Shown: in pieces, positions 2,909 to 24,694 of the stretch
Layout of the letters: each line of letters starts with the position of its first letter
Position numbering within the stretch: position 1 is the first letter of the stretch
Origin: Cystobacter fuscus
GTDB taxonomy: Bacteria; Myxococcota; Myxococcia; Myxococcales; Myxococcaceae
Assembly: GCF_044360685.1 (NCBI RefSeq)
Contig: NZ_CP043491.1
Location: forward strand, 7,499,542 to 7,531,541
DNA: 32,000 bases
Direction: 5' to 3'
Made by a program: the position numbers and the translations under genes
The notes under the pieces: generated by a model
Told to the model about the DNA's origin: nothing
Database searches by the model: none
What the model saw: only the letters and a program-made list of their open reading frames with translations

Positions 2909-3685
2909 TCAGGCCATCTCGCCGCGTGACAGCGCCAGGACGAGCAGGAGGGCGCACTCCCCCACCTGCTGCGTGGCCCCGAGAAAGTCCCCAGTGATGC
3001 CCCCCGCGCGCACCCGGAAGCGCCAGCCACACACGAGCGCGGTGAGGCCAGCGGCCGCCAGCAGGGCCCACGCGGTGGCCACCTCCAACCCTCCCCTCCA
3101 GAGCAGCGCACCCATCAGCAGGACGGGACAGGCGGTGGCCAGCATCGCCTGGGCTCCGGACACGCGCACCATGCTCTGACTGCGTGAGGTCGCATTGCTC
3201 GACACGTAGGGCAGGCTCACCATCAGCCAGATGGGAGGGGTGCGTGCCAGGCATTGGCTCAACACGAGGGCCAGGGGCGCGGTCTCATCGAGCCTCGCCA
3301 GCAGCGCGATGCGCAGCACCAGCACGACGCACAGCGCCGCCGCGCCGAAGGAGCCGATGCGGCTGTCCTTGAGGATCTCGAAGAGGCGCGCGCGGTCATA
3401 CGCGCCCCCGAGCGCGTCAGCGGTGTCGGCCAGGCCGTCCTCGTGAAGCGCGCCCGTGAGCAGCATCCCCACGCCCACCACCAACGCGGCGGCCACCAGG
3501 GGCCCCGCGCGCTCGACAGCCAGCCAGAGCAACGCCAGCAGCCCACCGAGGCTCGCGCCCACCAGCGGAAACCAGCCCGAGGCCCACTGCCAGTCCGCCG
3601 GGGTGTAGGGAAAGCCTCCCACGGGAATGCGGGTATAGAAGGCGAAGGCCGCACGGGCTCCCCGCACCATGGGAGGCAGTTGCAT
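2909..3685 (-). CDS. cobS: adenosylcobinamide-GDP ribazoletransferase (cobalamin synthase)
   Basis: ORF 2909..3895 trimmed to M71 (ATG 3685..3683), which shares one nt with the cobT stop (TGATG). The 258-aa polytopic membrane protein carries FYTRIP, HEDGLADTADALGG and ITGDFLGA motifs typical of CobS. Confidence 0.9.
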   Translation of the reverse strand: MQLPPMVRGARAAFAFYTRIPVGGFPYTPADWQWASGWFPLVGASLGGLLALLWLAVERAGPLVAAALVVGVGMLLTGALHEDGLADTADALGGAYDRARLFEILKDSRIGSFGAAALCVVLVLRIALLARLDETAPLALVLSQCLARTPPIWLMVSLPYVSSNATSRSQSMVRVSGAQAMLATACPVLLMGALLWRGGLEVATAWALLAAAGLTALVCGWRFRVRAGGITGDFLGATQQVGECALLLVLALSRGEMA

Positions 3686-4764
3686 CAGCCCTGCCCCTTG
3701 TCTGGAACCCCGGCCTCCTCGAAGGTGGCCATGCCCGCGTGAAGCGCGCACGCGGCGTCCACCAGCGGCAGTGCCGTCAGCGCGCCACTGCCCTCCCCCA
3801 GCCGCATCCCCAGCTCGAGCAGCGGCCTCGCGCCGAGCGCCTCCAGCACATGCCGGTGGCCCGCCTCCGCCGAACGGTGGGCGAACAGCATCCACTCCCG
3901 CGCTCCCGGGGCCATCCGCTCCAGCGCCAGCATGGCCACCGACACGATGAAGCCGTCCACCAGCACGGCCTTGCGCAGCTCGATGGCCCGCGCCGCCGCG
4001 CCGATCAGGGCGGCGATGTCCCGTCCGCCAGCGGAGCGCACGGCCTGCTCGGGACTCACGCCCCGAAGCCGCCGCACCGCATCCCGCACCACCTCCACCT
4101 TGCGCGCCAGGCCCGCCTCGTCCACGCCCGTGCCCCTGCCCACCACCTCCTCCGCCTCCCGCCCGAGCAGCAGCGCCGCCACCGCGGCCGCCACGGTGGT
4201 GTTGCCAATGCCCATCTCTCCCAGCACCACCACGCGGACATCGTCCGGAAGCTTGTCCACCTCCGCAGCTCCCGCCGCCAGCGCACGCTGGAAGGTGGCC
4301 TCGCTCATCGCGTCCTCCACCCGCAGGTCACCCCCCGGCTCGTCCGCCACCGGATCGCGCCGGAAGGAGACCCCCTCGACGGAAGGCGGCGAGAGCGGCC
4401 GCATCACGCCCACGTCCACCACGCGCAGCGGCACGCCCAGGTGCCGGCACAGGACACTGGAGGCCGCTCCACCCCGAAGGAAGTTCTCCACCATGGCCCC
4501 GGTGACGGCCTGGGGATAGGGCGAGACGCCATGACGGGTGACGGCATGATCCGACGCGAAGAGCAGGGCCGCCGCGGGCCGGCTCCGAGGCAGTGTCGTG
4601 CCTTGGAGGGCGGCCAGCTTCACCGCCACCTCCTCCAGCGCCCCCAGGCTGCCCGGGGGCTTGGTGAGACGGGACTGTCTGTCTCGTGCGCTGTTGGCCG
4701 CTGCCGTGTCCGACGTCGGAATGCTCCACTGTCCTCGCTTCGTCTCCACCGTCCACGTGCTCAT
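3685..4764 (-). CDS. cobT: nicotinate-nucleotide--dimethylbenzimidazole phosphoribosyltransferase
   Basis: Motifs LTKPPGSLGALEE, FASDHAV..HGVS, VVDVGV and GEMGIGNTT indicate the CobT family. ATG 4764 is preceded by AGGGGGA 6 nt upstream. An alternative GTG at 4785 would overlap the cobQ stop (GTGA). Confidence 0.9.
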   Translation of the reverse strand: MSTWTVETKRGQWSIPTSDTAAANSARDRQSRLTKPPGSLGALEEVAVKLAALQGTTLPRSRPAAALLFASDHAVTRHGVSPYPQAVTGAMVENFLRGGAASSVLCRHLGVPLRVVDVGVMRPLSPPSVEGVSFRRDPVADEPGGDLRVEDAMSEATFQRALAAGAAEVDKLPDDVRVVVLGEMGIGNTTVAAAVAALLLGREAEEVVGRGTGVDEAGLARKVEVVRDAVRRLRGVSPEQAVRSAGGRDIAALIGAAARAIELRKAVLVDGFIVSVAMLALERMAPGAREWMLFAHRSAEAGHRHVLEALGARPLLELGMRLGEGSGALTALPLVDAACALHAGMATFEEAGVPDKGQG

Positions 4765-4781
4765 TTCGTTCCCCCTGGGGC

Positions 4782-6263
4782 TCACAACCCCACCAACTGG
4801 TCAATGTACGTAAGGTCCAATGCACTCGCGAAGTGATCGGCGAGCACCTCGTAAGGGTCGGCCGGTGAGAAACCCGCCGTCACCACACCGAGTTCCGACA
4901 GCAGCGCCCGCCGCACCGGCACGTTCTCGAAGAGGCCGTGCACGAGAGTCCCCGCTACCTTCCCTTCCCGTGCCACGCACCCCTCGGGCTCCTGGCCCTC
5001 TCCAGGCCGCACCCGCATGCCGAAGGGTTGTGCGCCCGGCGCCACCGTCACCTGCCCACAATGGATTTCGTAGCCCCGCACCTCGGCGCCTCCCGCGGCG
5101 CGCATCCCCGGCAGCCCCTCCCCGAGCCGCAAGGACACCGGCGCGGTGGACTTCTCCTTCTCGAAGCGCGTCACCACCGGCAGCAGGCCCAGCCCCGCCA
5201 CATCCGGCTCCGACGACTCCACGCCCAACGGATCGAGGATGCGCTCGCCCATCATCTGGTAGCCGCCACAGATGCCCAGCACCGGTTGGCCCTCGTGCAC
5301 CCGCCGCACCAGCGCTCCCGCCAGGCCCGTGCGCCGCAGCCACCCCAGATCGTTCGCCGTGCACTTGGTGCCCGGGATGATGACGAGCCGCGCTCCCTCC
5401 AGCTCCTCGGGCCGCTCGCACCAGCGCACCTCCACTCCCGGCTCGCGCGCCAGCGGCTCGAACTCATCGAAGTTGGACAGGCGCGGCAGTCTCAGGATGC
5501 ACACCAGCGCCCCACCCCGCGCCTCCGGCTCTCCCTTGCGCAAGTCCAGCGAGTCCTCACTGGCGATGCCCGTGTCTCCCAAGTGGGGGATGACTCCGGC
5601 CACGCGGATGCCGCACCGCTTCTCCAGAAAGCGCACCCCTCCCTCGAACAGGGCCGGGTCGCCGCGGAACTTGTTCACCACCAGCGCCCGCACCCGCTCC
5701 CGCTCCGAGGGCTCCAGCAGCTCCAGCGTCCCCACCAGCGCCGCCAGCGCCCCTCCCCGCTCGATGTCCGTCACCAGGGCCACCGGGGCGTCGGCTCGCT
5801 CGGCCACCCACATGTTCACGAGATCCCGATCCTTGAGGTTCACCTCCGCCGGGCTGCCCGCCCCCTCGATGATGACCAGCTCATGGCGCTCGCGCAGGGC
5901 GTCCAAGGCCTGTCCCACCACCTCGCGCAGCTCGGGCTTGCGCCGGTGGTAGTCGCGGAAGTGCATGCTCCCCAGCACCCGGCCCATCACCACCACCTGG
6001 GAGCCCGACGTCGTCTCCGGTTTGAGGAGGATGGGATTCATCTCCGCGCACGGCACCGCTCGCGCCGCCTCCGCCTGGGCGTACTGGGCCCGGCCAATCT
6101 CCGCTCCATCCGGTGTCACCGCGGAGTTGAGGGCCATGTTCTGCGACTTGAAGGGCGCCACCTTGAAGCCCCGCCGCGCGTAGATGCGGCAGAGGGCCGT
6201 CACCAGCAGGCTCTTGCCCACGCTGGAGGCGGTGCCTTGGATCATCAGGGTACGGGCCTTCAT
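4782..6263 (-). CDS. cobQ: cobyric acid synthase (adenosylcobyrinic acid a,c-diamide amidotransferase)
   Basis: ORF 4782..7241 trimmed to MKARTLMIQGTASSVGKS (ATG 6263..6261), which overlaps the cobD stop as ATGA. 493 aa, with an N-terminal CobQ/CobB/MinD-type nucleotide-binding domain and a C-terminal GATase domain (GICGGYQMMG ... H). Confidence 0.92.
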   Translation of the reverse strand: MKARTLMIQGTASSVGKSLLVTALCRIYARRGFKVAPFKSQNMALNSAVTPDGAEIGRAQYAQAEAARAVPCAEMNPILLKPETTSGSQVVVMGRVLGSMHFRDYHRRKPELREVVGQALDALRERHELVIIEGAGSPAEVNLKDRDLVNMWVAERADAPVALVTDIERGGALAALVGTLELLEPSERERVRALVVNKFRGDPALFEGGVRFLEKRCGIRVAGVIPHLGDTGIASEDSLDLRKGEPEARGGALVCILRLPRLSNFDEFEPLAREPGVEVRWCERPEELEGARLVIIPGTKCTANDLGWLRRTGLAGALVRRVHEGQPVLGICGGYQMMGERILDPLGVESSEPDVAGLGLLPVVTRFEKEKSTAPVSLRLGEGLPGMRAAGGAEVRGYEIHCGQVTVAPGAQPFGMRVRPGEGQEPEGCVAREGKVAGTLVHGLFENVPVRRALLSELGVVTAGFSPADPYEVLADHFASALDLTYIDQLVGL

Positions 6264-7333
6264 TCGAGCGACTCCCGGACACGCCGCCAGGCGGCGCGCA
6301 GAAGGGGATGGTCCGCCTCGAGTCTCACGCCGAGGCGGATGTGATGCGGAAGGCCGAGGCTGGTGCAGTCCCGCACCCGGATGCCGGCCTGGGCCGCGGC
6401 CGTGGAGAAGGCGCGAGCCTCGGGCACCCGGCACAGGAGGAACGTGCCCCCGGAGGCGTCCACCCAGGCACCGGCCTCGGTCAGGAGCGAGTGCTGCGCG
6501 CTCCGCAGCCGGGCCACCTCCGCCCTCACCGCGTCCACCTGCCCGAGACAGTCGAGCGCCACCCGGCCCGCCGCCAGCGCCGGCGCCGACACGTTCCAGG
6601 GCGGAAGGGACGCCTGCACCGCGCGAAGCAGCCGTGGCTCTCCCAGCAGGTAGCCGAGCCGCAGTCCCGGCAGGGCGAACACCTTGGTGAGGGAGCGCAG
6701 CACCACGACATTGCCTCCCGGGCTCATGGGCGGCACGCCCTCGAAGAGCGGCTGGTAGGCCTCGTCCACCACCACCAGCGTCCCGGGCGAGGCCTCCGCC
6801 GCGGCCCGCACCGCCTCCATCGGGAAGACGGCGAGGCAGGGATTGCTCGGCCGGCACACGAAGAGCAGTGACGGCGTGTGGCGGCGGAGCATGGAGAGCA
6901 GCGCCTCGAGGTTCCACCCGAAGGGCGGCCCCTCGGCGGCGAGGCATTCCACCGTGGCTCCGCTGGCGCGCACCGCCTGGGCGTACTCCGCGAAGGCGGG
7001 GGTGAGCACCACCGCGCTCCGTCCCGGTCCGGCGAAGGCACGAGCCAGGGCCCAGATGAGCTCCACCGAGCCATTGCCCACCACCACCCCATCGAGCGGC
7101 AGCCCATGCAGCCCGGCCACGCGCTCGCGCAGGGGAAGCCCGGTGGGATGCGGGTAGCGCCGCACGTCCGCGGCACGGAAGGCCTCGAGCACCGCTTCCG
7201 GGGGAGGCAGCGGGGAGACACCCGTGCTGAAGTCCACGCACCCGGGCGCCGCGTCCCCCCCGTGCGGAGTGGGCGTCAGGTCGTGCAGCTCAGGGCGAGG
7301 CGAGGGCAACACGGAACCCCTCCCCATAGACAT
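6260..7333 (-). CDS. cobD: L-threonine-O-3-phosphate decarboxylase (Salmonella CobD; CobC in Pseudomonas denitrificans nomenclature), class I/II aminotransferase fold
   Basis: 357 aa. Has an N-terminal HGG, the PLP-lysine motif RSLTKVFALPGLRLGY, and the conserved position between cbiB and cobQ. The start is uncertain (7333, 7327 or GTG 7312); all overlap the cbiB 3' end by 23-44 nt. Confidence 0.8.
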   Translation of the reverse strand: MSMGRGSVLPSPRPELHDLTPTPHGGDAAPGCVDFSTGVSPLPPPEAVLEAFRAADVRRYPHPTGLPLRERVAGLHGLPLDGVVVGNGSVELIWALARAFAGPGRSAVVLTPAFAEYAQAVRASGATVECLAAEGPPFGWNLEALLSMLRRHTPSLLFVCRPSNPCLAVFPMEAVRAAAEASPGTLVVVDEAYQPLFEGVPPMSPGGNVVVLRSLTKVFALPGLRLGYLLGEPRLLRAVQASLPPWNVSAPALAAGRVALDCLGQVDAVRAEVARLRSAQHSLLTEAGAWVDASGGTFLLCRVPEARAFSTAAAQAGIRVRDCTSLGLPHHIRLGVRLEADHPLLRAAWRRVRESLE

Positions 7334-8243
7334 AGGCGGCCGTCAGCGCCGCGGCCAGCAACGAAGCCGCCACCATGAGGAAGACCGCCCGGCGGATGTC
7401 CTCCGCGCCCGGCTGGCGTCCTCCGGCGCCCAACCGGTAGTGCCCCACCTTCTCCAGCTCCACCCCCAGCCCTCCGGCCACCGCGGCCATGGGGCGGCCC
7501 GCGTTGGGGCTCTCGGTGGCGGCGCCGTCGCGCCACCAGGAGATCACCGCCCGGGCCGGAGAGGCACCACACAGCGCGCACGCCAGCACGAGGAGCGCGG
7601 CGGACAGGCGCGCGGGCACCAGGTTGAGGACGTCGTCCAACCGGGCGGCGGCCTTGCCCAACCACTCCAGCTCTCCACGGTAGCCAATCATCGCATCCAG
7701 GGTGTTGGCCGCCCGGTACGCGAGCGCTCCGGGGACGCCCGCCACCGCGTAGAAGAGCAGCGGCGCCACCACCGAGTCCGAGGTGTTCTCCGCCACCGAC
7801 TCCACCGCCGCCGCCGCCAACAGCGGGGGCTCGAGGCCCGAGGTGTCACGCGACACGAGGCTGCGCAAGGCGAAGCGGGCCGCGGGCGCATCCCCCTCGC
7901 TCAGCGCGCGGAAGACGGCCAGGCCCGCCTCGGCGAGGGCCCGCACCGCGAAGGCGCTCTTGAGGAGGTACACCTCGAGCGCGAGCTGCACGAGGGGCCA
8001 GGAGGAGACGAGGCGCAGCAGGGCCCACGCTCCGAGTCCGAAGACGGCGGGACCCGTCACCGCCATCACCAGGCCGTGGAGGAAAGCGGGCACGGGCGCA
8101 CGGGGCGCCAGCCGGCGCAGGCGCCGTTGCAGGCGTCCCATCCACACCACGGGGTGCAGCACCGTGGGAGGCTCGCCCCAGGCGAGGTCCACCCCGAGCG
8201 CGGCCACCAGCACCAGGACCGCATGCAGTCCCCCGTCCATCAT
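7290..8243 (-). CDS. cbiB: adenosylcobinamide-phosphate synthase
   Basis: 317-aa membrane protein with HPVVWMG, ENTSDSVVAPLFY, YRAANTLDAMIGY and NAGRPMAA motifs of the CbiB/CobD family. Its start ATG 8243 overlaps the cobU stop (ATGA). Confidence 0.9.
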   Translation of the reverse strand: MMDGGLHAVLVLVAALGVDLAWGEPPTVLHPVVWMGRLQRRLRRLAPRAPVPAFLHGLVMAVTGPAVFGLGAWALLRLVSSWPLVQLALEVYLLKSAFAVRALAEAGLAVFRALSEGDAPAARFALRSLVSRDTSGLEPPLLAAAAVESVAENTSDSVVAPLLFYAVAGVPGALAYRAANTLDAMIGYRGELEWLGKAAARLDDVLNLVPARLSAALLVLACALCGASPARAVISWWRDGAATESPNAGRPMAAVAGGLGVELEKVGHYRLGAGGRQPGAEDIRRAVFLMVAASLLAAALTAAYVYGEGFRVALASP

Positions 8244-9471: not shown

Positions 9472-10859
9472 GTCCGTTGCTCCTTGAAGGCGCGTGCCGA
9501 AGCCACGAGTCCCTCGGCGACCAGGGGGTTGGAGGCCCAGTGGGCGTGGACGTAGGAGGCCAGCACGTTGGGCGGGCCGAAGCCCTCGGTATGGATGGTG
9601 CCGCCACGACGCTTGCGGATGCGCAGCACTCCCCCCTGCTCGGGGACGCCCTCCAGCGTGGAGTAGCGGAACTGGTGCCCGCGGAAGCGCAGCCCTGCTC
9701 CGCCCAGCACGGTGCGCACCGTCGTCTCCACCTCCACGTAGCCGAGCGCCTGGAGCTTGGGCGCCATCACCGCCACTCCGGGCACCAGCCCGACCATGGG
9801 GAAGTCCCGGCCATCGAGGGTGCGGATGCCCTGGCTGAGGTACATCATCCCGCCGCACTCGGCGTAGATGGGGCCACCGCGCGCGGCGAAGTCGGAGAGG
9901 GCACGCCGCAGGGACTGGTTGTCGGCCAGCCGCCGCGCATGCAGTTCCGGGTAGCCGCCTCCGAGATAGACGGCGTGCACGTCCGGAGGAAGTGCCTCGT
10001 CCGCCAGCGGCGAGAAGGGCACGCACTGGGCGCCGAGCCGCTCGAGCCGCCGCAGGTTGTCCGCGTAATAGAAATGGAAGGCGGCATCCTGGGCCACCGC
10101 GATGCGGCAGGTGACGGGGGCCTCGGAGCGGTCTTCCGCTGGTGCCTCTGGCAAGGCCGGAGCCTCTCGCGCGAGGCGAAGGAAGGCCTCCGGATCATTC
10201 CATTCGGCGAGCAGCGTGCCCCAGGCATCGAGGTTGCGCGTGGGGATGCTCTCCTCGGAAGCGGTGAGCAGGCCCAGGTGGCGCTCGGGGAAGGCGAGTG
10301 ACTCCTGGGCGGGCAGTCCCCCCACCACGGGCACCGCCGTGCCACGCGCCGCGCGCTGGAGCAGCTCCAGGTGGCTGCGGCTGCCCACGCGGTTGGCGAA
10401 GAGGCCCGCCACCTTCAACTCCGGATCAAAGGCCGCCAGCCCGGTGCCGATGGCGGCGATGGTGCGCGCCATGCCCGAGACATCCACCACCGCGAGAACG
10501 GGCGCCGCCAGCCACTTGGCCACCTGCGCCGCCGAGCCCTCCTCCGAGTCCGGCGAGGCCCCGTCATAGAGCCCCATCACCCCCTCGATGAGCGCCACGT
10601 CGTGGCCCTGGCTGGCGTGCCGGAAGGTGGAGACGACGGCATCGCGGCCCATCAGCCAGCCATCGAGGTTGTGGCACGGCGCCCCGGAGGTGCGCGCGTG
10701 GTAGCTCGGATCGAGGTAGTCCGGACCGCACTTGAAGGTGGCCACCTTCAGGCCGCGCGCCTGGAGCGCCCGGGTGAGCGCCACCATGACGGTCGTCTTG
10801 CCCACGCCGCTGGACGTGCCCGCCACCACCAGCCGGGGAATCAGGAGGGCGCCGTCCAT
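9468..10859 (-). CDS. cbiA: cobyrinate a,c-diamide synthase
   Basis: 463 aa. Has N-terminal VVAGTSSGVGKTTV and KCGPDYLDPSYH, plus a C-terminal GATase domain YAECGGMMYL. Start ATG 10859 shares one nt with the cobO stop (TGATG). Confidence 0.92.
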   Translation of the reverse strand: MDGALLIPRLVVAGTSSGVGKTTVMVALTRALQARGLKVATFKCGPDYLDPSYHARTSGAPCHNLDGWLMGRDAVVSTFRHASQGHDVALIEGVMGLYDGASPDSEEGSAAQVAKWLAAPVLAVVDVSGMARTIAAIGTGLAAFDPELKVAGLFANRVGSRSHLELLQRAARGTAVPVVGGLPAQESLAFPERHLGLLTASEESIPTRNLDAWGTLLAEWNDPEAFLRLAREAPALPEAPAEDRSEAPVTCRIAVAQDAAFHFYYADNLRRLERLGAQCVPFSPLADEALPPDVHAVYLGGGYPELHARRLADNQSLRRALSDFAARGGPIYAECGGMMYLSQGIRTLDGRDFPMVGLVPGVAVMAPKLQALGYVEVETTVRTVLGGAGLRFRGHQFRYSTLEGVPEQGGVLRIRKRRGGTIHTEGFGPPNVLASYVHAHWASNPLVAEGLVASARAFKEQRT

Positions 10860-11389
10860 CAGAAGTCGAGCCCCACCTGCGCGGGAATGCCCTTCTCGAA
10901 GGGATGGCGCACGTTGCGCATCTCGGTGACGAGCTCCGCCGCCGCCACCAGGGGCTCCGGAGCGGAGCGCCCGGTGATGATCACATGCACGTGGGAGGGG
11001 CGTGCCGCCAGCGCCTCCATCACCTCGTCCACGGGGACGAAGCCGTAGTTGAGCACGTACGTCAGCTCATCGAGCACCACCACCTCGTGCTCGCCGCTCG
11101 TCATCAACCGCCGGGCCTCGGCCCACGCCTCCTGGGCGGCCCGCTTGTCCCGGGAGATGTCCTCGCTCTCCCAGGTGAAGCCCCGTCCCATGGTGAGGAA
11201 GACGAGCCCGGGAATGCTCTCCGCGTAGGTGCGCTCGCCCGTCTTCCACTTGCCCTTGATGAACTGCACCACCGCGGGCTTCATCCCCCGGCCGAGCGCG
11301 CGGAACACCACGCCGAGCGCGGCCGTGGTCTTCCCCTTGCCATCTCCCGTGTAGACGACCAGCAGTCCCTTCGTCGGTCTCGCGTTCAT
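10859..11389 (-). CDS. cobO: cob(I)yrinic acid a,c-diamide adenosyltransferase (CobA/CobO/BtuR type)
   Basis: ORF 10859..11593 trimmed to ATG 11389..11387, which overlaps the upstream stop (ATGA). 176 aa with YTGDGKGKTTAALG, VVQFIKG, VVLDELTY and ITGR motifs. Confidence 0.9.
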   Translation of the reverse strand: MNARPTKGLLVVYTGDGKGKTTAALGVVFRALGRGMKPAVVQFIKGKWKTGERTYAESIPGLVFLTMGRGFTWESEDISRDKRAAQEAWAEARRLMTSGEHEVVVLDELTYVLNYGFVPVDEVMEALAARPSHVHVIITGRSAPEPLVAAAELVTEMRNVRHPFEKGIPAQVGLDF

Positions 11390-12714
11390 GTCCCACGCTC
11401 CTGTCGTTCGAACCACGAGAGGCGCTCGCGCAGCCGCACCACCTCGCCCACCACCACCAGGGCCGGCGGCCCCAGCACGTTCTGCTCCCGCACCCGCTCG
11501 GCGAGCGTCTCCAGGGTGCCCACCACCACCACCTGCTCGGGCGAGGTGGCCGCGGCGATGTAGGCCGCGGGCGTCTGGGGGCTGCGTCCACACTCCACCA
11601 GCCGGGCCAGGTTGGCCGCGAGCTTCCGGGTGGCCATGAAGAGCACCAGCGTGCCCGCGGCCACGCCCAGCTTCTCCCAGTTCGTGAGGCTGCGAGGCCC
11701 CTCGAGGTCGTGCCCCGTGACGAAGGAGACGTCGGAGGCGTACTGCCGGTGGGTGAGCGGGATGCCGGCGCAGGCGGCGGCTCCGAGCGCGGCCGAGATG
11801 CCGGGCACCACCTCGTAGGCAATGCCCGCCTCGAGCAACTCCTCCGCCTCCTCACCGCCTCGCCCGAAGATGAACGGATCTCCCTGCTTCAAGCGCACCA
11901 CGTGCCGCCCGGCGCGGGCCCGCTCGAGCACCGCCGGGTGCAGCCGGTAGCCCGCCTGGGTGGAGCCCTGGTTGCGGTGGCCCACGAGGATGCGTTCCGC
12001 CTGGGGGCCGATCTCCGCGAGCACCGCCGGGGGGATGAGGGCGTCGTAGGCCACCACCTCCGCCTGTTGCAGCAGGGTGCGCGCCCTCACGGTGAGCAGT
12101 CCCGGATCGCCCGGCCCCGCGCCCACCAGGGACACGAAGCCGCCCCGGCGCTCGTCCCGCCCACGCCCGAGCGCCTCCTCGCAGAAGCGCACCCGCTCCT
12201 CCAGCGAGGCGCTCGAGTCCGGAACGAAGTGCAACCGCGAGGCTGAGACGGAGCGGCGCAGGAGCGACTCGAGGACGAGCTGGTAGCGCATCTCGTCCAT
12301 CGGGCTGTCACTCCGGACGCCGTCCCGCTCATAGGGGATGACGCCCCAGGGAAGGACGAAGACGGCGTCGTAGTGGCCCCCGGGCGCTGGAGACTCGAAG
12401 AACTCCGGGATGAGCTCCGCGCACCCGTGCTGGAGCGCATAGGCGGCGAAGTCCGTGGCGCAGTTGTCCGCCACGAAGCCCTCGTGCCGCTCCTCCTCGC
12501 GCCGCCGGCGCACGGACCACAATTCCCGGAGCACCCGCGCGCGCTCGGGCACGGGCAACTGCGCCAGGCGCGTGCCGGTGCGCAGGACGAACTCCCGCGT
12601 CTCCTCGGGGACAAGGGGCAGCCCGAGGCGGCTCGCCAGCGCGTTCACGAGCGTCGTCTTCCCCACCCCGGCCGCGCCGGTGATGGCAATGCGCCACGGC
12701 CGCTCAGGGCGCAT
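11386..12714 (-). CDS. cobA: fusion protein: N-terminal P-loop NTPase/kinase-like domain (NadR C-terminal / AAA_28-like) plus C-terminal uroporphyrinogen-III C-methyltransferase (SUMT)
   Basis: A single 442-aa ORF with no internal stop. Residues 1-190 carry Walker A ITGAAGVGKTT, VPEETREF, FVADNCATDFAAY, YDAVFVLPWGVIPYERDGVR and LEERV. Residues 195-442 carry LVGAGPGDPGLLT, RLKQGDPFIFGRGGEE and VVPGISAALGAAA, the tetrapyrrole methylase fold. Confidence 0.85.
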   Translation of the reverse strand: MRPERPWRIAITGAAGVGKTTLVNALASRLGLPLVPEETREFVLRTGTRLAQLPVPERARVLRELWSVRRRREEERHEGFVADNCATDFAAYALQHGCAELIPEFFESPAPGGHYDAVFVLPWGVIPYERDGVRSDSPMDEMRYQLVLESLLRRSVSASRLHFVPDSSASLEERVRFCEEALGRGRDERRGGFVSLVGAGPGDPGLLTVRARTLLQQAEVVAYDALIPPAVLAEIGPQAERILVGHRNQGSTQAGYRLHPAVLERARAGRHVVRLKQGDPFIFGRGGEEAEELLEAGIAYEVVPGISAALGAAACAGIPLTHRQYASDVSFVTGHDLEGPRSLTNWEKLGVAAGTLVLFMATRKLAANLARLVECGRSPQTPAAYIAAATSPEQVVVVGTLETLAERVREQNVLGPPALVVVGEVVRLRERLSWFERQERGT

Positions 12715-13471
12715 CTTCCGTCCCCTTCCGGAAGCGATGGGTGAAGGTCGGGTCGTACAGGCGCGAGTTGGCGAAGTCCTTCGCCTCCAGCACCTCGCCC
12801 ACCAGGATCATCGCGGTCGCGTTGATGCGCTCGGCGCGCACCTTGTCGCCAATGTCCGCCAGCGTGCCGCGCACCACCTTCTGATCCGGCCAGGTGGCCT
12901 TCTGCACCACCGCGACGGGACAGTCCGGCCCGTAGGAGGGCAGCAGCTTCTCCACCACGTCACGGATGAGGCCCGCGCTGAGGAAGAGCGCCAGGGTGGC
13001 ACGGTGGCGCGCCAGATCCTCCAGCTTCTCTCCCTCCGGCATGAGGGTGCGTCCCTCGGCGCGGGTGACGATGACCGTCTGCGACAGCTCGGGCAGCGTC
13101 AGCTCCTTGCCCAGCACCGCAGCCGCGGCGGTGAAGGAGGACACCCCCGGGATGATCTCGTAGGGAATGCCGAGCTCGACGAGCCTGCGCATCTGCTCCG
13201 CGGTGGAGCCGAAGATGGACGGATCTCCCGTGTGCACGCGGGCTACGTCCTGATCCGCGGCATGGGCCTCCTTGAGGACGTCGATGATCTGCTCGAGCGT
13301 CATGGACGAGGAGTCGAGCACCCGCGCATCCGGCCGGGCCCGGGCGATGACCGCCTGCGGGACGAGCGAGCCGGTGTAGAGCACCACGGGGCACTGCTCG
13401 ACGAGCTCGGCCCCGCGCACGGTGATGAGCTTCGGATCTCCGGGTCCGGCACCGATGATGTAGACCTTCAT
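12704..13471 (-). CDS. cbiF: cobalt-precorrin-4 C11-methyltransferase
   Basis: 255 aa with IIGAGPGDPKLITV, HTGDPSIFG and IIPGVSSFTAAAA. GGAG SD lies in the 10-nt gap after orf131. Confidence 0.92.
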   Translation of the reverse strand: MKVYIIGAGPGDPKLITVRGAELVEQCPVVLYTGSLVPQAVIARARPDARVLDSSSMTLEQIIDVLKEAHAADQDVARVHTGDPSIFGSTAEQMRRLVELGIPYEIIPGVSSFTAAAAVLGKELTLPELSQTVIVTRAEGRTLMPEGEKLEDLARHRATLALFLSAGLIRDVVEKLLPSYGPDCPVAVVQKATWPDQKVVRGTLADIGDKVRAERINATAMILVGEVLEAKDFANSRLYDPTFTHRFRKGTEDAP

Positions 13472-13481
13472 TCTCTTCTCC

Positions 13482-13877
13482 TCACGAGCAGCGCAGGACG
13501 GAGTCGCGCACCAGGTCCCAGACGTGTCCGGGCACGAGCCCCAGCCAGCGGGCGTCCGTTTCCGGCCGGGCCTCGTGCTCGGTGACGAGCCGCCACAGCC
13601 GCTCCGACACCGAGCCGTTGCGGCGGATGACCAGCCGCTCGAAGAGCAGCCGCGCCAGGGCCTCCCCCTCGAGCTCCATCACCAGCAGCGGCGCGGCCAC
13701 CTCCACCGGGCGCACCGGCGAGAGCCGCACGTAGGGCAGCTCCACCCCGGGAAGCTGAGCGGGCGGCTCGAAGCCCGCCGCGGCCCAGTCACACGGCTCC
13801 TTGAGATCTCCCACCAGGAAGAACGCTCCCTCGGTGGAGGCGAGCAACGCACCCGCCAGACGTCCCACGCGTGCCAT
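13482..13877 (-). CDS. hypothetical protein (orf131) embedded between cbiH and cbiF
   Basis: 131-aa ORF. Hand-read codons are strongly GC3-biased like the neighbours. It starts 3 nt after the cbiH stop and stops 10 nt before the cbiF start. No recognisable motif. Confidence 0.6.
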   Translation of the reverse strand: MARVGRLAGALLASTEGAFFLVGDLKEPCDWAAAGFEPPAQLPGVELPYVRLSPVRPVEVAAPLLVMELEGEALARLLFERLVIRRNGSVSERLWRLVTEHEARPETDARWLGLVPGHVWDLVRDSVLRCS

Positions 13878-24450: not shown

Positions 24451-24487
24451 GGCAACCTCGCTCTCAATCCACGGAGAGATGGGTCGA

Positions 24488-24685
24488 ACAGCCCTGGGTA
24501 GGTCTCCTGGCTCGTGGATTCAGAGCGCCTGACGGCGTTCAGCGCCACCTCCACCTTCCCCGACGCCGAGGCATCGAGTGGTGACTTCGGAGGTAGCTCC
24601 CCACTGACAGTGGCGGGACCGCGCCGGACTCACACCGGCTTCCCTGTTATGCCCGTGATAGCGGGCACCCCTGGCTATGGATTCA
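24488..24685 (-). promoter_or_regulatory. cobalamin (AdoCbl) riboswitch
   Basis: The minus strand reads ...CCAGGGGTGCCCGCTATCACGGGCATAACAGGGAAGCCGGTGTGAGTCCGGCGCGGTCCCGCCACTGTCAGTGGGG...GAATCCACGAGCCAGGAGACCTACCCAGGG. This contains the conserved GGGAAGCCGGTG.GA.TCCGGCGCGGTCCCGCCACTGT core and the B12 box GCCAGGAGACCT.CC. A CTCTC-N8-GAGAG hairpin downstream overlaps the cbiM SD region. Confidence 0.92.
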
Positions 24686-24694
24686 ATTGTCGGG

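Follow-up and report, generated by a model that had tools for sequence, protein, structure and literature searches.

The window analysed here, a stretch of 32,000 nucleotides from Cystobacter fuscus, contains an array of cob genes on the minus strand with a cobalamin riboswitch at its head. One open reading frame in this array encodes a protein of 442 residues, in which a P-loop kinase domain and a uroporphyrinogen-III methyltransferase (SUMT) domain are joined by a short linker (Table 1). The reading frame is uninterrupted, as the preliminary description had reported, and the plus-strand frame contains a stop. The start ATG lies inside the 3′ end of cbiF behind a Shine-Dalgarno-like stretch (AAGGGGA), the stop codon overlaps the start of cobO, and the gene is predicted to be translationally coupled to both neighbours. 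The GC3 value of the whole reading frame is 0.93, as in neighbouring genes, and the closest database match (95% identity), also from Cystobacter fuscus, is equally 442 residues long. cbiZ is located in the same operon.

Table 1 Features of the fusion gene and of related genes in the window.
Feature	Position	Strand	Basis or remark
Complete fusion gene, 442 aa (AAA_28 kinase domain at the N-terminus, SUMT at the C-terminus)	11386..12714	(-)	
N-terminal P-loop kinase domain, ~residues 1-185	12160..12714	(-)	Pfam, AF2 model, Foldseek
Walker A GAAGVGKTT, residues 13-21, Lys19	12652..12678	(-)	G13, G18, K19, T20 invariant
Walker B-like strand with the beginning of a helix: FVADNCATD, residues 80-88; Asp83, Asp88, Asn84	12451..12477	(-)	Alignment
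Lid motif P-Y-x-x-D-G-x-R, residues 127-134; Arg134, Tyr128	12313..12336	(-)	Aligns with NadR lid region 304-318 (PMC7221760)
Short linker between kinase and SUMT, ~residues 186-191	12142..12159	(-)	phmmer domain boundaries
SUMT (CobA) domain, residues 192-442 and stop codon	11386..12141	(-)	TIGR01469
cbiF/cobM, immediately upstream	12704..13471	(-)	TIGR01465, 351 bits; stop overlaps fusion start by 11 nt
cobO, downstream	10859..11389	(-)	Start overlaps fusion stop (ATGA)
cobD, L-threonine-phosphate decarboxylase	6260..7333	(-)	TIGR01140, 231 bits (best match, below the cut-off of 290.55)
cbiB, adenosylcobinamide-phosphate synthase	7290..8243	(-)	TIGR00380, 226 bits
cobT, NaMN:DMB phosphoribosyltransferase, de novo route to alpha-ribazole phosphate	3685..4785	(-)	CobT in all 8 fusion genomes tested
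Cobalamin riboswitch 5′ of cbiM, head of the same-strand cob gene array	24480..24687	(-)	Rfam RF00174, 108 bits

The C-terminal part is a complete SUMT, in agreement with the preliminary description. It scored above the cut-offs of the NCBIfam models TIGR01469 (263 bits; cut-off 185) and NF004790 (274 bits; cut-off 198) and covered profile positions 1-237 of 238, and the Pfam TP_methylase family PF00590 matched residues 194-405 with 176 bits. Besides the fused copy, the genome has two other SUMT paralogues. The linker varies between 6 and 35 residues among homologues. In public databases, the fusion proteins are annotated only as 'uroporphyrinogen-III C-methyltransferase' and approximately 190 conserved residues are passed over.

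The N-terminal kinase domain and its cobamide-associated clade

Residues 8-174 matched Pfam AAA_28 (PF13521) over the entire profile (positions 1-164 of 164) with 75.2 bits (cut-off 27) and an E-value of 9e-21, and a six-frame search of the genome itself with the same profile gave 75.4 bits for the N-domain. The single-sequence AlphaFold prediction of the whole protein (pLDDT 37) was discarded, and an alignment-based AF2 model of the N-domain (pLDDT 89.8) was used for Foldseek searches. The best folds were the ribosylnicotinamide kinase (RNK) domains of NadR (8x7f, 6gyf, and 1lw7; TM ~0.62-0.73), and deoxynucleoside and thymidylate kinases were close neighbours. The domain thus has an NMP/nucleoside-kinase fold with the Walker A lysine, the Walker B aspartate, and the lid arginine in place, and the earlier assignment to NadR-RNK-like AAA_28 proteins is borne out by both the profiles and the confident model. 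All motifs quoted earlier (Walker A GAAGVGKTT, EETREF, FVADNCATDF, LPWGVIPYERDGVR, and LEERV) were found, and they make up the invariant or near-invariant columns when the sequence is aligned with 24 stand-alone relatives. Among 85 SUMT-fused members, residues K19, E37, R40, D83, D88, D131, R134, and R174 are 96–100% conserved; D83, D88, and R134 reach 100%, and K19 is present in 96% with gaps in the remainder.

The taxonomic survey suggested in the preliminary description showed that the architecture is no one-off. The fusion occurs in at least 71 protein clusters from Myxococcota, Acidobacteriota, and Planctomycetota metagenome-assembled genomes, and across these phyla homologues of 47–95% identity encode the two domains in a single reading frame. 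Some carry a C-terminal addition of HemD or, in metagenomic homologues, of CobO. All fused N-domains fall into a single clade of 103 members with a support of 1.0 and a long stem. Three active-site-proximal positions are specific to this clade (E38, N84, and Y128): N84 is present in 92% of the members and Y128 in 100%, while the sister clades have Arg and Leu, respectively. These differences suggest that the substrate has changed.

The clade is restricted to cobamide loci. The domain lies inside the cob cluster at all 16 genome loci that have cob genes, and the order cbiF to kinase-SUMT is kept in 14 of the 15 SUMT-fused genome loci; the metagenome scan covered at least 10 loci. Stand-alone members are rare and are likewise sited in cobamide loci: beside cbiZ-cobD-cbiB-bluB-cobU-btu (L008, L009, and L102), beside cbiF/hemD (L011), directly after cobC with cbtAB and cobN also present (L100), beside cobO (L129), and beside a riboswitch-pduO arrangement (L101), the single case behind a B12 riboswitch. 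Their neighbours are assorted cob genes in which cobD and cbiB are not constant, and the clusters of L008, L009, and L102 lack SUMT and any other methyltransferase of the ring pathway. Because the stand-alone members nest within the fused clade, the function of the domain has survived separation from SUMT, several times near late linker-related genes. We infer kinase activity for the N-domain, and stand-alone orthologues in cobamide loci without SUMT, one of them riboswitch-controlled, argue that it is very probably an active kinase of the cobamide pathway.

Search for an L-threonine kinase gene

The preliminary description had noted that the L-threonine kinase genes pduX and bluE are missing from the window, and their absence extends to the entire 11.85 Mb genome. 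Salmonella PduX as the query gave no match in the whole genome even at E<=1, and the GHMP kinases of the genome consist of two GalK proteins, mevalonate kinase, and MVD only. The N-domain itself has no GHMP match in Pfam or NCBIfam and is not of the PduX/BluE-type GHMP fold. No cob-linked PduX-like kinase was found in five other fusion genomes, and CobD and CbiB were present in every fusion genome examined for them. The distribution of the domain is patchy, as it occurs in 4 of 21 sampled CbiB-positive genomes (3 of 13 Myxococcota and 1 of 8 Acidobacteriota, seeds included). Ten CbiB-positive Myxococcota without the domain also lack PduX, and no complementary distribution of the domain and PduX was seen among the sampled CbiB-positive genomes in surveys (single-sequence PduX searches and PF00288 censuses) that may miss very divergent BluE-like kinases.

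A Salmonella replicon in PLSDB supplied the PduX query; E. coli E24377A was rejected as a source since its pdu operon stops at pduV. NCBIfam holds no PduX-specific model, and PF22700, which also hits PduX, was rejected as a marker since it is a generic MVD-like_N domain. The homologue search with PduX returned Enterobacteriaceae only among the best 120 matches listed, too narrow a range for a broad profile. BluE is reportedly confined to Rhodobacterales. A Methanosarcina-type kinase extension on CobD was considered for relatives without the domain, and the long reading frames proved to be CobD-CobQ fusions. As for alpha-ribazole kinase (CblS), the sole PF02110 gene of the genome is 1.7 Mb distant, the N-domain has no PF02110 match, CobT is present, and no CblT/PnuC-like transporter was found in the window cluster. 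Most verified cobamide producers have no pduX, which is a recognised gap (PMC6461909), and with such a high base rate the argument from a pathway hole is weak.

Substrate of the kinase domain and alternative roles

In the mechanism that we propose, the gene would yield a single bifunctional polypeptide. Its C-terminal half would be a SUMT dedicated to the B12 cluster, and its N-terminal half, which belongs to a clade of NadR-RNK-like AAA_28 proteins specific to cobamide synthesis, would be competent to catalyse the ATP-dependent phosphorylation of a small molecule. The N-domain would phosphorylate L-threonine to L-threonine-O-3-phosphate, CobD from the same operon would decarboxylate this compound, and CbiB would attach the CobD product to adenosylcobyric acid. 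The N-domain would stand in for PduX/BluE without being a GHMP kinase, and the fusion would tie together the opening reactions of the linker and ring branches. L-threonine is the substrate that we favour, albeit at somewhat less than even confidence, and with slightly more reserve still we suggest that the AAA_28 clade of cob clusters may represent a third class of L-threonine kinase, one with a P-loop, that is mostly joined to SUMT and fills the gap upstream of CobD. The earlier idea that the N-domain supplies a missing kinase step remains plausible: the stand-alone orthologues speak for its membership in the cobamide pathway, but most CbiB-positive relatives lack the domain and also PduX, which speaks against it. 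The closest characterised relatives of the N-domain act on ribosides and not on amino acids, an observation that counts against L-threonine. NCBIfam contains a model of a P-loop homoserine kinase (NF040667), which implies that small P-loop kinases are able to act on hydroxy-amino acids.

It is unlikely, though consistent with this kinship, that the N-domain is a riboside 5′-kinase resembling NadR RNK, with alpha-ribazole (as for CblS) or nicotinate/nicotinamide riboside as its substrate. Such an enzyme could serve to trap lower-ligand riboside obtained by salvage, to return a phosphate to the alpha-ribazole that CobC releases, or to supply CobT. The nearest relatives in both sequence and fold are riboside kinase domains of NadR, the patchy distribution suits an accessory salvage function, L100 directly follows cobC, and in sister clades the kinase is fused to a CobC-like histidine phosphatase, for which alpha-ribazole phosphatase is the best model (127-153 bits). 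These phosphatase-kinase fusions, however, reside in genomes without CbiB, CobS, and CobT; alpha-ribazole for cobamide assembly is thereby ruled out as their substrate, and the wider family is therefore not bound to threonine phosphate either. The only constant neighbours of the non-cob sister clades reflect lineage-specific synteny (DUF6925 and a BtuF-like binding protein); in Rhodocista, one divergent riboswitch adjoins such a member. For the cob clade, all 8 fusion genomes tested have CobT, which makes alpha-ribazole phosphate directly, so that de novo synthesis would have no need of an alpha-ribazole kinase; alpha-ribazole is for this reason the less likely of the two substrates named in the preliminary description. 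Known salvage by CblS/CblT is found in organisms that lack CobT. The absence of such a transporter from the window cluster and the residues at positions 38, 84, and 128 that set the clade apart from its sisters also speak against a riboside kinase.

Another role within cobamide metabolism is also doubtful, and we would give it roughly one chance in four: the domain may phosphorylate the (R)-1-amino-2-propanol that CbiZ sets free, or it may be a nucleoside (adenosine) kinase that promotes the removal of S-adenosylhomocysteine (SAH), or an ATP-sensing regulatory module of SUMT. By pulling SAH removal, the nucleoside kinase would lift the inhibition by this product from SUMT and from the seven other methylations. 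Such roles would fit the overwhelming tendency of the domain to be joined straight to SUMT through a short linker, the specialisation of the fused copy expected from two further SUMT paralogues, the presence of cbiZ in the operon and next to stand-alone forms, and the fold similarity to deoxynucleoside and thymidylate kinases. The persistence of L008, L009, and L102 in clusters without SUMT or a ring methyltransferase argues against both SAH relief and the ATP-dependent regulation at SUMT put forward earlier, since these secondary fissions have retained the kinase. For aminopropanol, the presence of CobD indicates that the linker is made via threonine phosphate and not from the free compound, and for nucleotide sensing, the fully conserved catalytic residues point to catalysis instead. 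It is highly improbable that the fusion is irrelevant, with SUMT made alone from an internal start or the N-domain being a decaying passenger. An internal GTG had been placed at about 12137 in the preliminary description; an in-frame GTG does exist at 12135 with a weak Shine-Dalgarno sequence, and a second one at 12192 follows GGAGGAG by 4 nt. The conserved Glu-Glu of LEERV accounts for that GGAGGAG, and the retention of both domains in frame across phyla, the strong conservation of catalytic residues, the neighbour-like GC3 over the whole reading frame, and the coupled start all speak against a dispensable N-domain.

Of all steps in cobamide synthesis, the phosphorylation of L-threonine has been mapped least well, and a conserved kinase clade confined to cobamide clusters offers a concrete and cheaply testable candidate for it. 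If the substrate is a different one (a riboside or aminopropanol), the domain would represent a salvage or repair step new to cobamide pathway maps. The candidate could be of use in metabolic reconstruction and in engineered B12 production, which now imports pduX or bluE (E. coli B12 strain, PMC6249242).

Comparison with known systems

In the literature searched, no paper linking an AAA_28 protein or NR-kinase to cobalamin was found. The RNK domain of NadR (1lw7, 6gye/6gyf/6gzo, and 8x7f) belongs to the same Pfam family and is the best fold match; the two correspond at the Lys of Walker A, the Asp of Walker B, and the Arg of the lid, and E-x-x-R after the P-loop is common to both. However, the identity is only ~20%, NadR has a D-T-D motif where the window protein has D83-x4-D88, and the scores against the NadR equivalog models are far below the cut-offs (TIGR01526, 27.2 bits, cut-off 341; NF005988, 15.2 bits, cut-off 201). 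The window protein also lacks an NMNAT or HTH domain, and its kinase is encoded in a B12 cluster and fused to SUMT. In CysG (SirC/SirB-SUMT) and CobA-HemD, SUMT likewise has a fusion partner, a second enzyme from tetrapyrrole metabolism, and some homologues of the window protein share a C-terminal HemD with the latter, but the partner here is an N-terminal P-loop kinase unrelated to the Rossmann-type N-domain of CysG. We know of no P-loop kinase that acts on a tetrapyrrole.

CblS (ThiM-like) is a cobamide accessory kinase acting on a riboside, which partners the CblT transporter in CobT-less Firmicutes, and it would be a functional analogue only if the substrate were a riboside; it belongs to another fold family (PF02110), and CobT is present in all fusion genomes tested, with no CblT-type transporter nearby in the window cluster. 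The sister-clade fusions resemble 6-phosphofructo-2-kinase/fructose-2,6-bisphosphatase (PFK-2/FBPase-2), in which a P-loop kinase is joined to a histidine-phosphatase domain, although the two domains follow each other in the opposite order and the kinases are of different families; the window protein does not share this likeness. With the GHMP kinases PduX, BluE, and DabA, the N-domain would share the reaction, which is putative here, and the same position upstream of CobD and CbiB, whereas its P-loop NMP-kinase-like fold bears no sequence relationship to theirs.

The fusion gene and its cluster

A full-length AAA_28 P-loop kinase domain (residues 8–174; Pfam, 75 bits, profile positions 1–164 of 164) and a complete uroporphyrinogen-III methyltransferase (SUMT; Pfam TP_methylase at residues 194–405; NCBIfam TIGR01469, 263 bits against a cut-off of 185) are encoded in one ORF of 442 codons, confirming the fusion proposed in the preliminary description. 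The motifs quoted there are present and correspond to invariant columns of the family alignment. The N-domain scores far under the NadR equivalog thresholds of NCBIfam. The fusion is already in public databases, where it is labelled only as SUMT; the most similar public protein (95% identity) comes from Cystobacter fuscus.

The gene sits in a long same-strand array of cobamide genes (window GC content 69.6%) in the order cbiM, cbiX-ferredoxin, FNR-like gene, cbiD, cbiET, cbiG, cbiH, orf131, cbiF, fusion, cobO, cbiA, cbiZ, cobU, cbiB, cobD, cobQ and cobT, with bluB and cobC nearby. The gene is translationally coupled to both neighbours, as its start ATG and the cbiF stop overlap by 11 nt and its stop shares ATGA with the cobO start. 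The product of orf131 has no match in Pfam or NCBIfam, yet the gene recurs at this place in Archangium, in Vitiosangium and in several clusters from Acidobacteriota and metagenomes (L013, L014, L017, L021, L022, L027, L029 and L127). The complete chromosome (11.85 Mb) encodes three SUMT paralogues including the fused copy, which is therefore regarded as dedicated to the cluster. A further AAA_28 protein encoded in this genome stands alone (180 aa, 34 bits); it has no LPWG...DGVR lid motif and belongs to a different subfamily, with no cob genes near it.

Coordinates of features in the window, on the chromosome of the same genome (C1) and at loci from other genomes or metagenomes (L handles)
Feature	Location	Strand	Remark
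Kinase–SUMT fusion ORF	window 11386..12714	-	
In-frame GTG	window 12192	-	
orf131	window 13482-13877	-	
Cobalamin riboswitch	window 24480-24687		at cbiM
Extra SUMT gene	C1:7485012-7485710	-	above TIGR01469 cut-off; ~14 kb outside window
Extra SUMT gene	C1:4040997-4041683	+	above TIGR01469 cut-off
Second AAA_28 protein	C1:6855220-6855762	-	
Stand-alone kinase followed by IS21-type transposase pair	L129:1487-3789	+	Mu-transposase C-terminal domain and IstB
PduX-like GHMP kinase	L153:1444-2580	+	Archangium minus; 26% identity to Salmonella PduX, E 1e-14
PALP-family (PLP beta-replacement) enzyme	L153:2543-3550	+	directly after PduX-like gene
CobD-CobQ fusion	L151:3656-6268	-	Myxococcota
CobD-CobQ fusion	L152:3634-6297	-	second Myxococcota genome
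pdu operon, E. coli E24377A	L120, NC_009801.1 2247082-2261613		
Cobalamin riboswitch	L048:9658-9886	-	Rhodocista pekingensis

Fold, family and spread of the kinase domain

The alignment-based AlphaFold model of the N-domain was confident (pLDDT 89.8, pTM 0.87), and its top PDB matches were the NadR RNK domains 8x7f, 6gyf and 1lw7; deoxynucleoside and thymidylate kinases came next. The best solved relative across the whole domain in phmmer was Lactococcus NadR, and the published Walker A, Walker B and lid segments of NadR (PMC7221760) align with GAAGVGKTT, FVAD and DGVR of the fusion. The conservation of K19, E37, R40, D83, D88, D131, R134 and R174 (96–100% in 85 SUMT-fused members) indicates an enzyme under selection and not a relic.

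Searching 1.84 billion representatives with a profile yielded 1749 matches below 1e-10, the majority being stand-alone proteins of ~190 aa. In a tree of 246 domains, every SUMT-fused sequence fell into one clade of 103 with a support of 1.0 and a long stem. Thirteen stand-alone proteins are nested within it and thus represent secondary fissions. All of those with readable context lie in cobamide loci: divergent from cbiZ-cobD-cbiB-bluB-cobU-btuFBCD (L008, L009, L010 and L102), between cbiF and a hemD-like gene (L011), after cobC and adjoining an AdoCbl riboswitch, cbtBA and cobN (L100), after pduO behind a cobalamin riboswitch (L101), and after cobO (L129). This retention argues that the kinase belongs to the cobamide pathway and that its job needs no covalent link to SUMT. 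The transposase pair 3' of the L129 kinase suggests that this neighbourhood was broken by insertion.

Kinase and SUMT share one frame in 71 clusters among the best 120 homologues, and variants carry a C-terminal HemD (~700 aa) or CobO (~630–770 aa), the latter reproducing the order of genes seen in the window. In species-representative genomes, a scan placed the family at 80 loci, 16 of them within cob clusters; SUMT is directly downstream in 15 of the 16, and cbiF is immediately ahead in 14 (not found at L025 and L026). The in-cluster hosts include Archangium, Vitiosangium, Anaeromyxobacter and Acidobacteriota such as 'Ca. Angelobacter'.

Candidate substrates

The N-domain is probably an active kinase dedicated to cobamide synthesis, and L-threonine is its tentative substrate. 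L-Threonine kinase is the sole kinase step without a gene here. CobD and CbiB are present. The kinases PduX, BluE and DabA are all GHMP proteins (PMC10906522). In this genome the GHMP genes are limited to two for galactokinase and one each for mevalonate kinase and diphosphomevalonate decarboxylase, and Salmonella PduX found nothing in it at E<=1. Five further fusion genomes have only GalK, ThrB, IspE, heptose-kinase-like and mevalonate-pathway members, with one exception: the PduX-like gene of Archangium, 310 kb from the cob cluster, whose pairing with a PALP-family gene fits DabA/DabB (2,3-diaminobutyrate) rather than cobamide synthesis. Most verified cobamide producers lack pduX (PMC6461909). 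The pdu operon of E. coli E24377A stops at pduV, without the pduW and pduX of the Salmonella operon (L121).

The preliminary description had suggested that the extra domain may supply an absent B12 kinase step or an ATP-dependent regulatory function. A cobamide-pathway kinase and the lack of PduX support the former in part, but the threonine step is weakened by patchy spread and by the nearest characterised chemistry, riboside phosphorylation. The family occurs in three of 201 evenly sampled Myxococcota genomes, all CbiB-positive and in-cluster; the ten other CbiB-positive genomes (13 in total) have neither the domain nor PduX, so that arguing from a pathway hole carries a high false-positive rate. 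In Acidobacteriota, CbiB was found in 8 of 151 genomes and the kinase domain only in the seed genome. The domain, absent from most CbiB-positive genomes sampled, is thus an accessory of a single, widely shared type of cluster and no universal solution. A kinase extension on CobD in two of the ten Myxococcota was ruled out, as these are fusions of threonine-phosphate decarboxylase with cobyric acid synthase (870–887 aa).

The same riboside chemistry would suit a substrate such as alpha-ribazole, which is nevertheless unlikely; CobT is present in all eight fusion genomes tested, and alpha-ribazole kinase would therefore serve salvage only. Another role, as an aminopropanol or nucleoside kinase or in regulation, is also unlikely, if slightly less so. 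It is highly improbable that the domain is irrelevant, given its conserved catalytic residues, or separately translated, although the in-frame GTG within the conserved LEERV motif, with GGAGGAG 4 nt ahead, is a possible internal start yielding SUMT with a 19-residue leader. Compared with its sister clades, the SUMT-linked clade has E38 for Gly, N84 for Arg and Y128 for Leu, at positions that adjoin the Walker B Asp or belong to the lid, and these replacements point to a change of substrate. Our literature search found no paper tying the AAA_28/NR-kinase family to cobalamin.

Sister clades

Two groups stand closest to the SUMT-linked clade: stand-alone proteins of Rhodospirillales, and fusions in which a histidine-phosphatase domain precedes the kinase. 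That phosphatase domain is best matched by the model of the alpha-ribazole phosphatase CobC (127–153 bits, below the cut-off), and the CobC of the window likewise scores below it. The stand-alone kinase gene of Rhodocista pekingensis has a cobalamin riboswitch as its immediate, divergent neighbour, and a BtuF-like periplasmic binding protein is encoded near the kinase in eight Rhodospirillales-type loci. No other cob gene was found within 10 kb of the phosphatase–kinase fusions, and CbiB, CobS and CobT are absent from two Planctomycetota carriers, one being the complete genome of Engelhardtia mirabilis. Cobamide specificity is thus confined to the SUMT-linked clade and does not extend to the wider family. 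A CobC-like phosphatase is fused to or adjacent upstream of a sister-clade kinase at L062 (E. mirabilis), L037, L047 and 15 other loci, and the pair looks like a candidate bifunctional phosphatase/kinase, with an architecture recalling that of PFK-2/FBPase-2.
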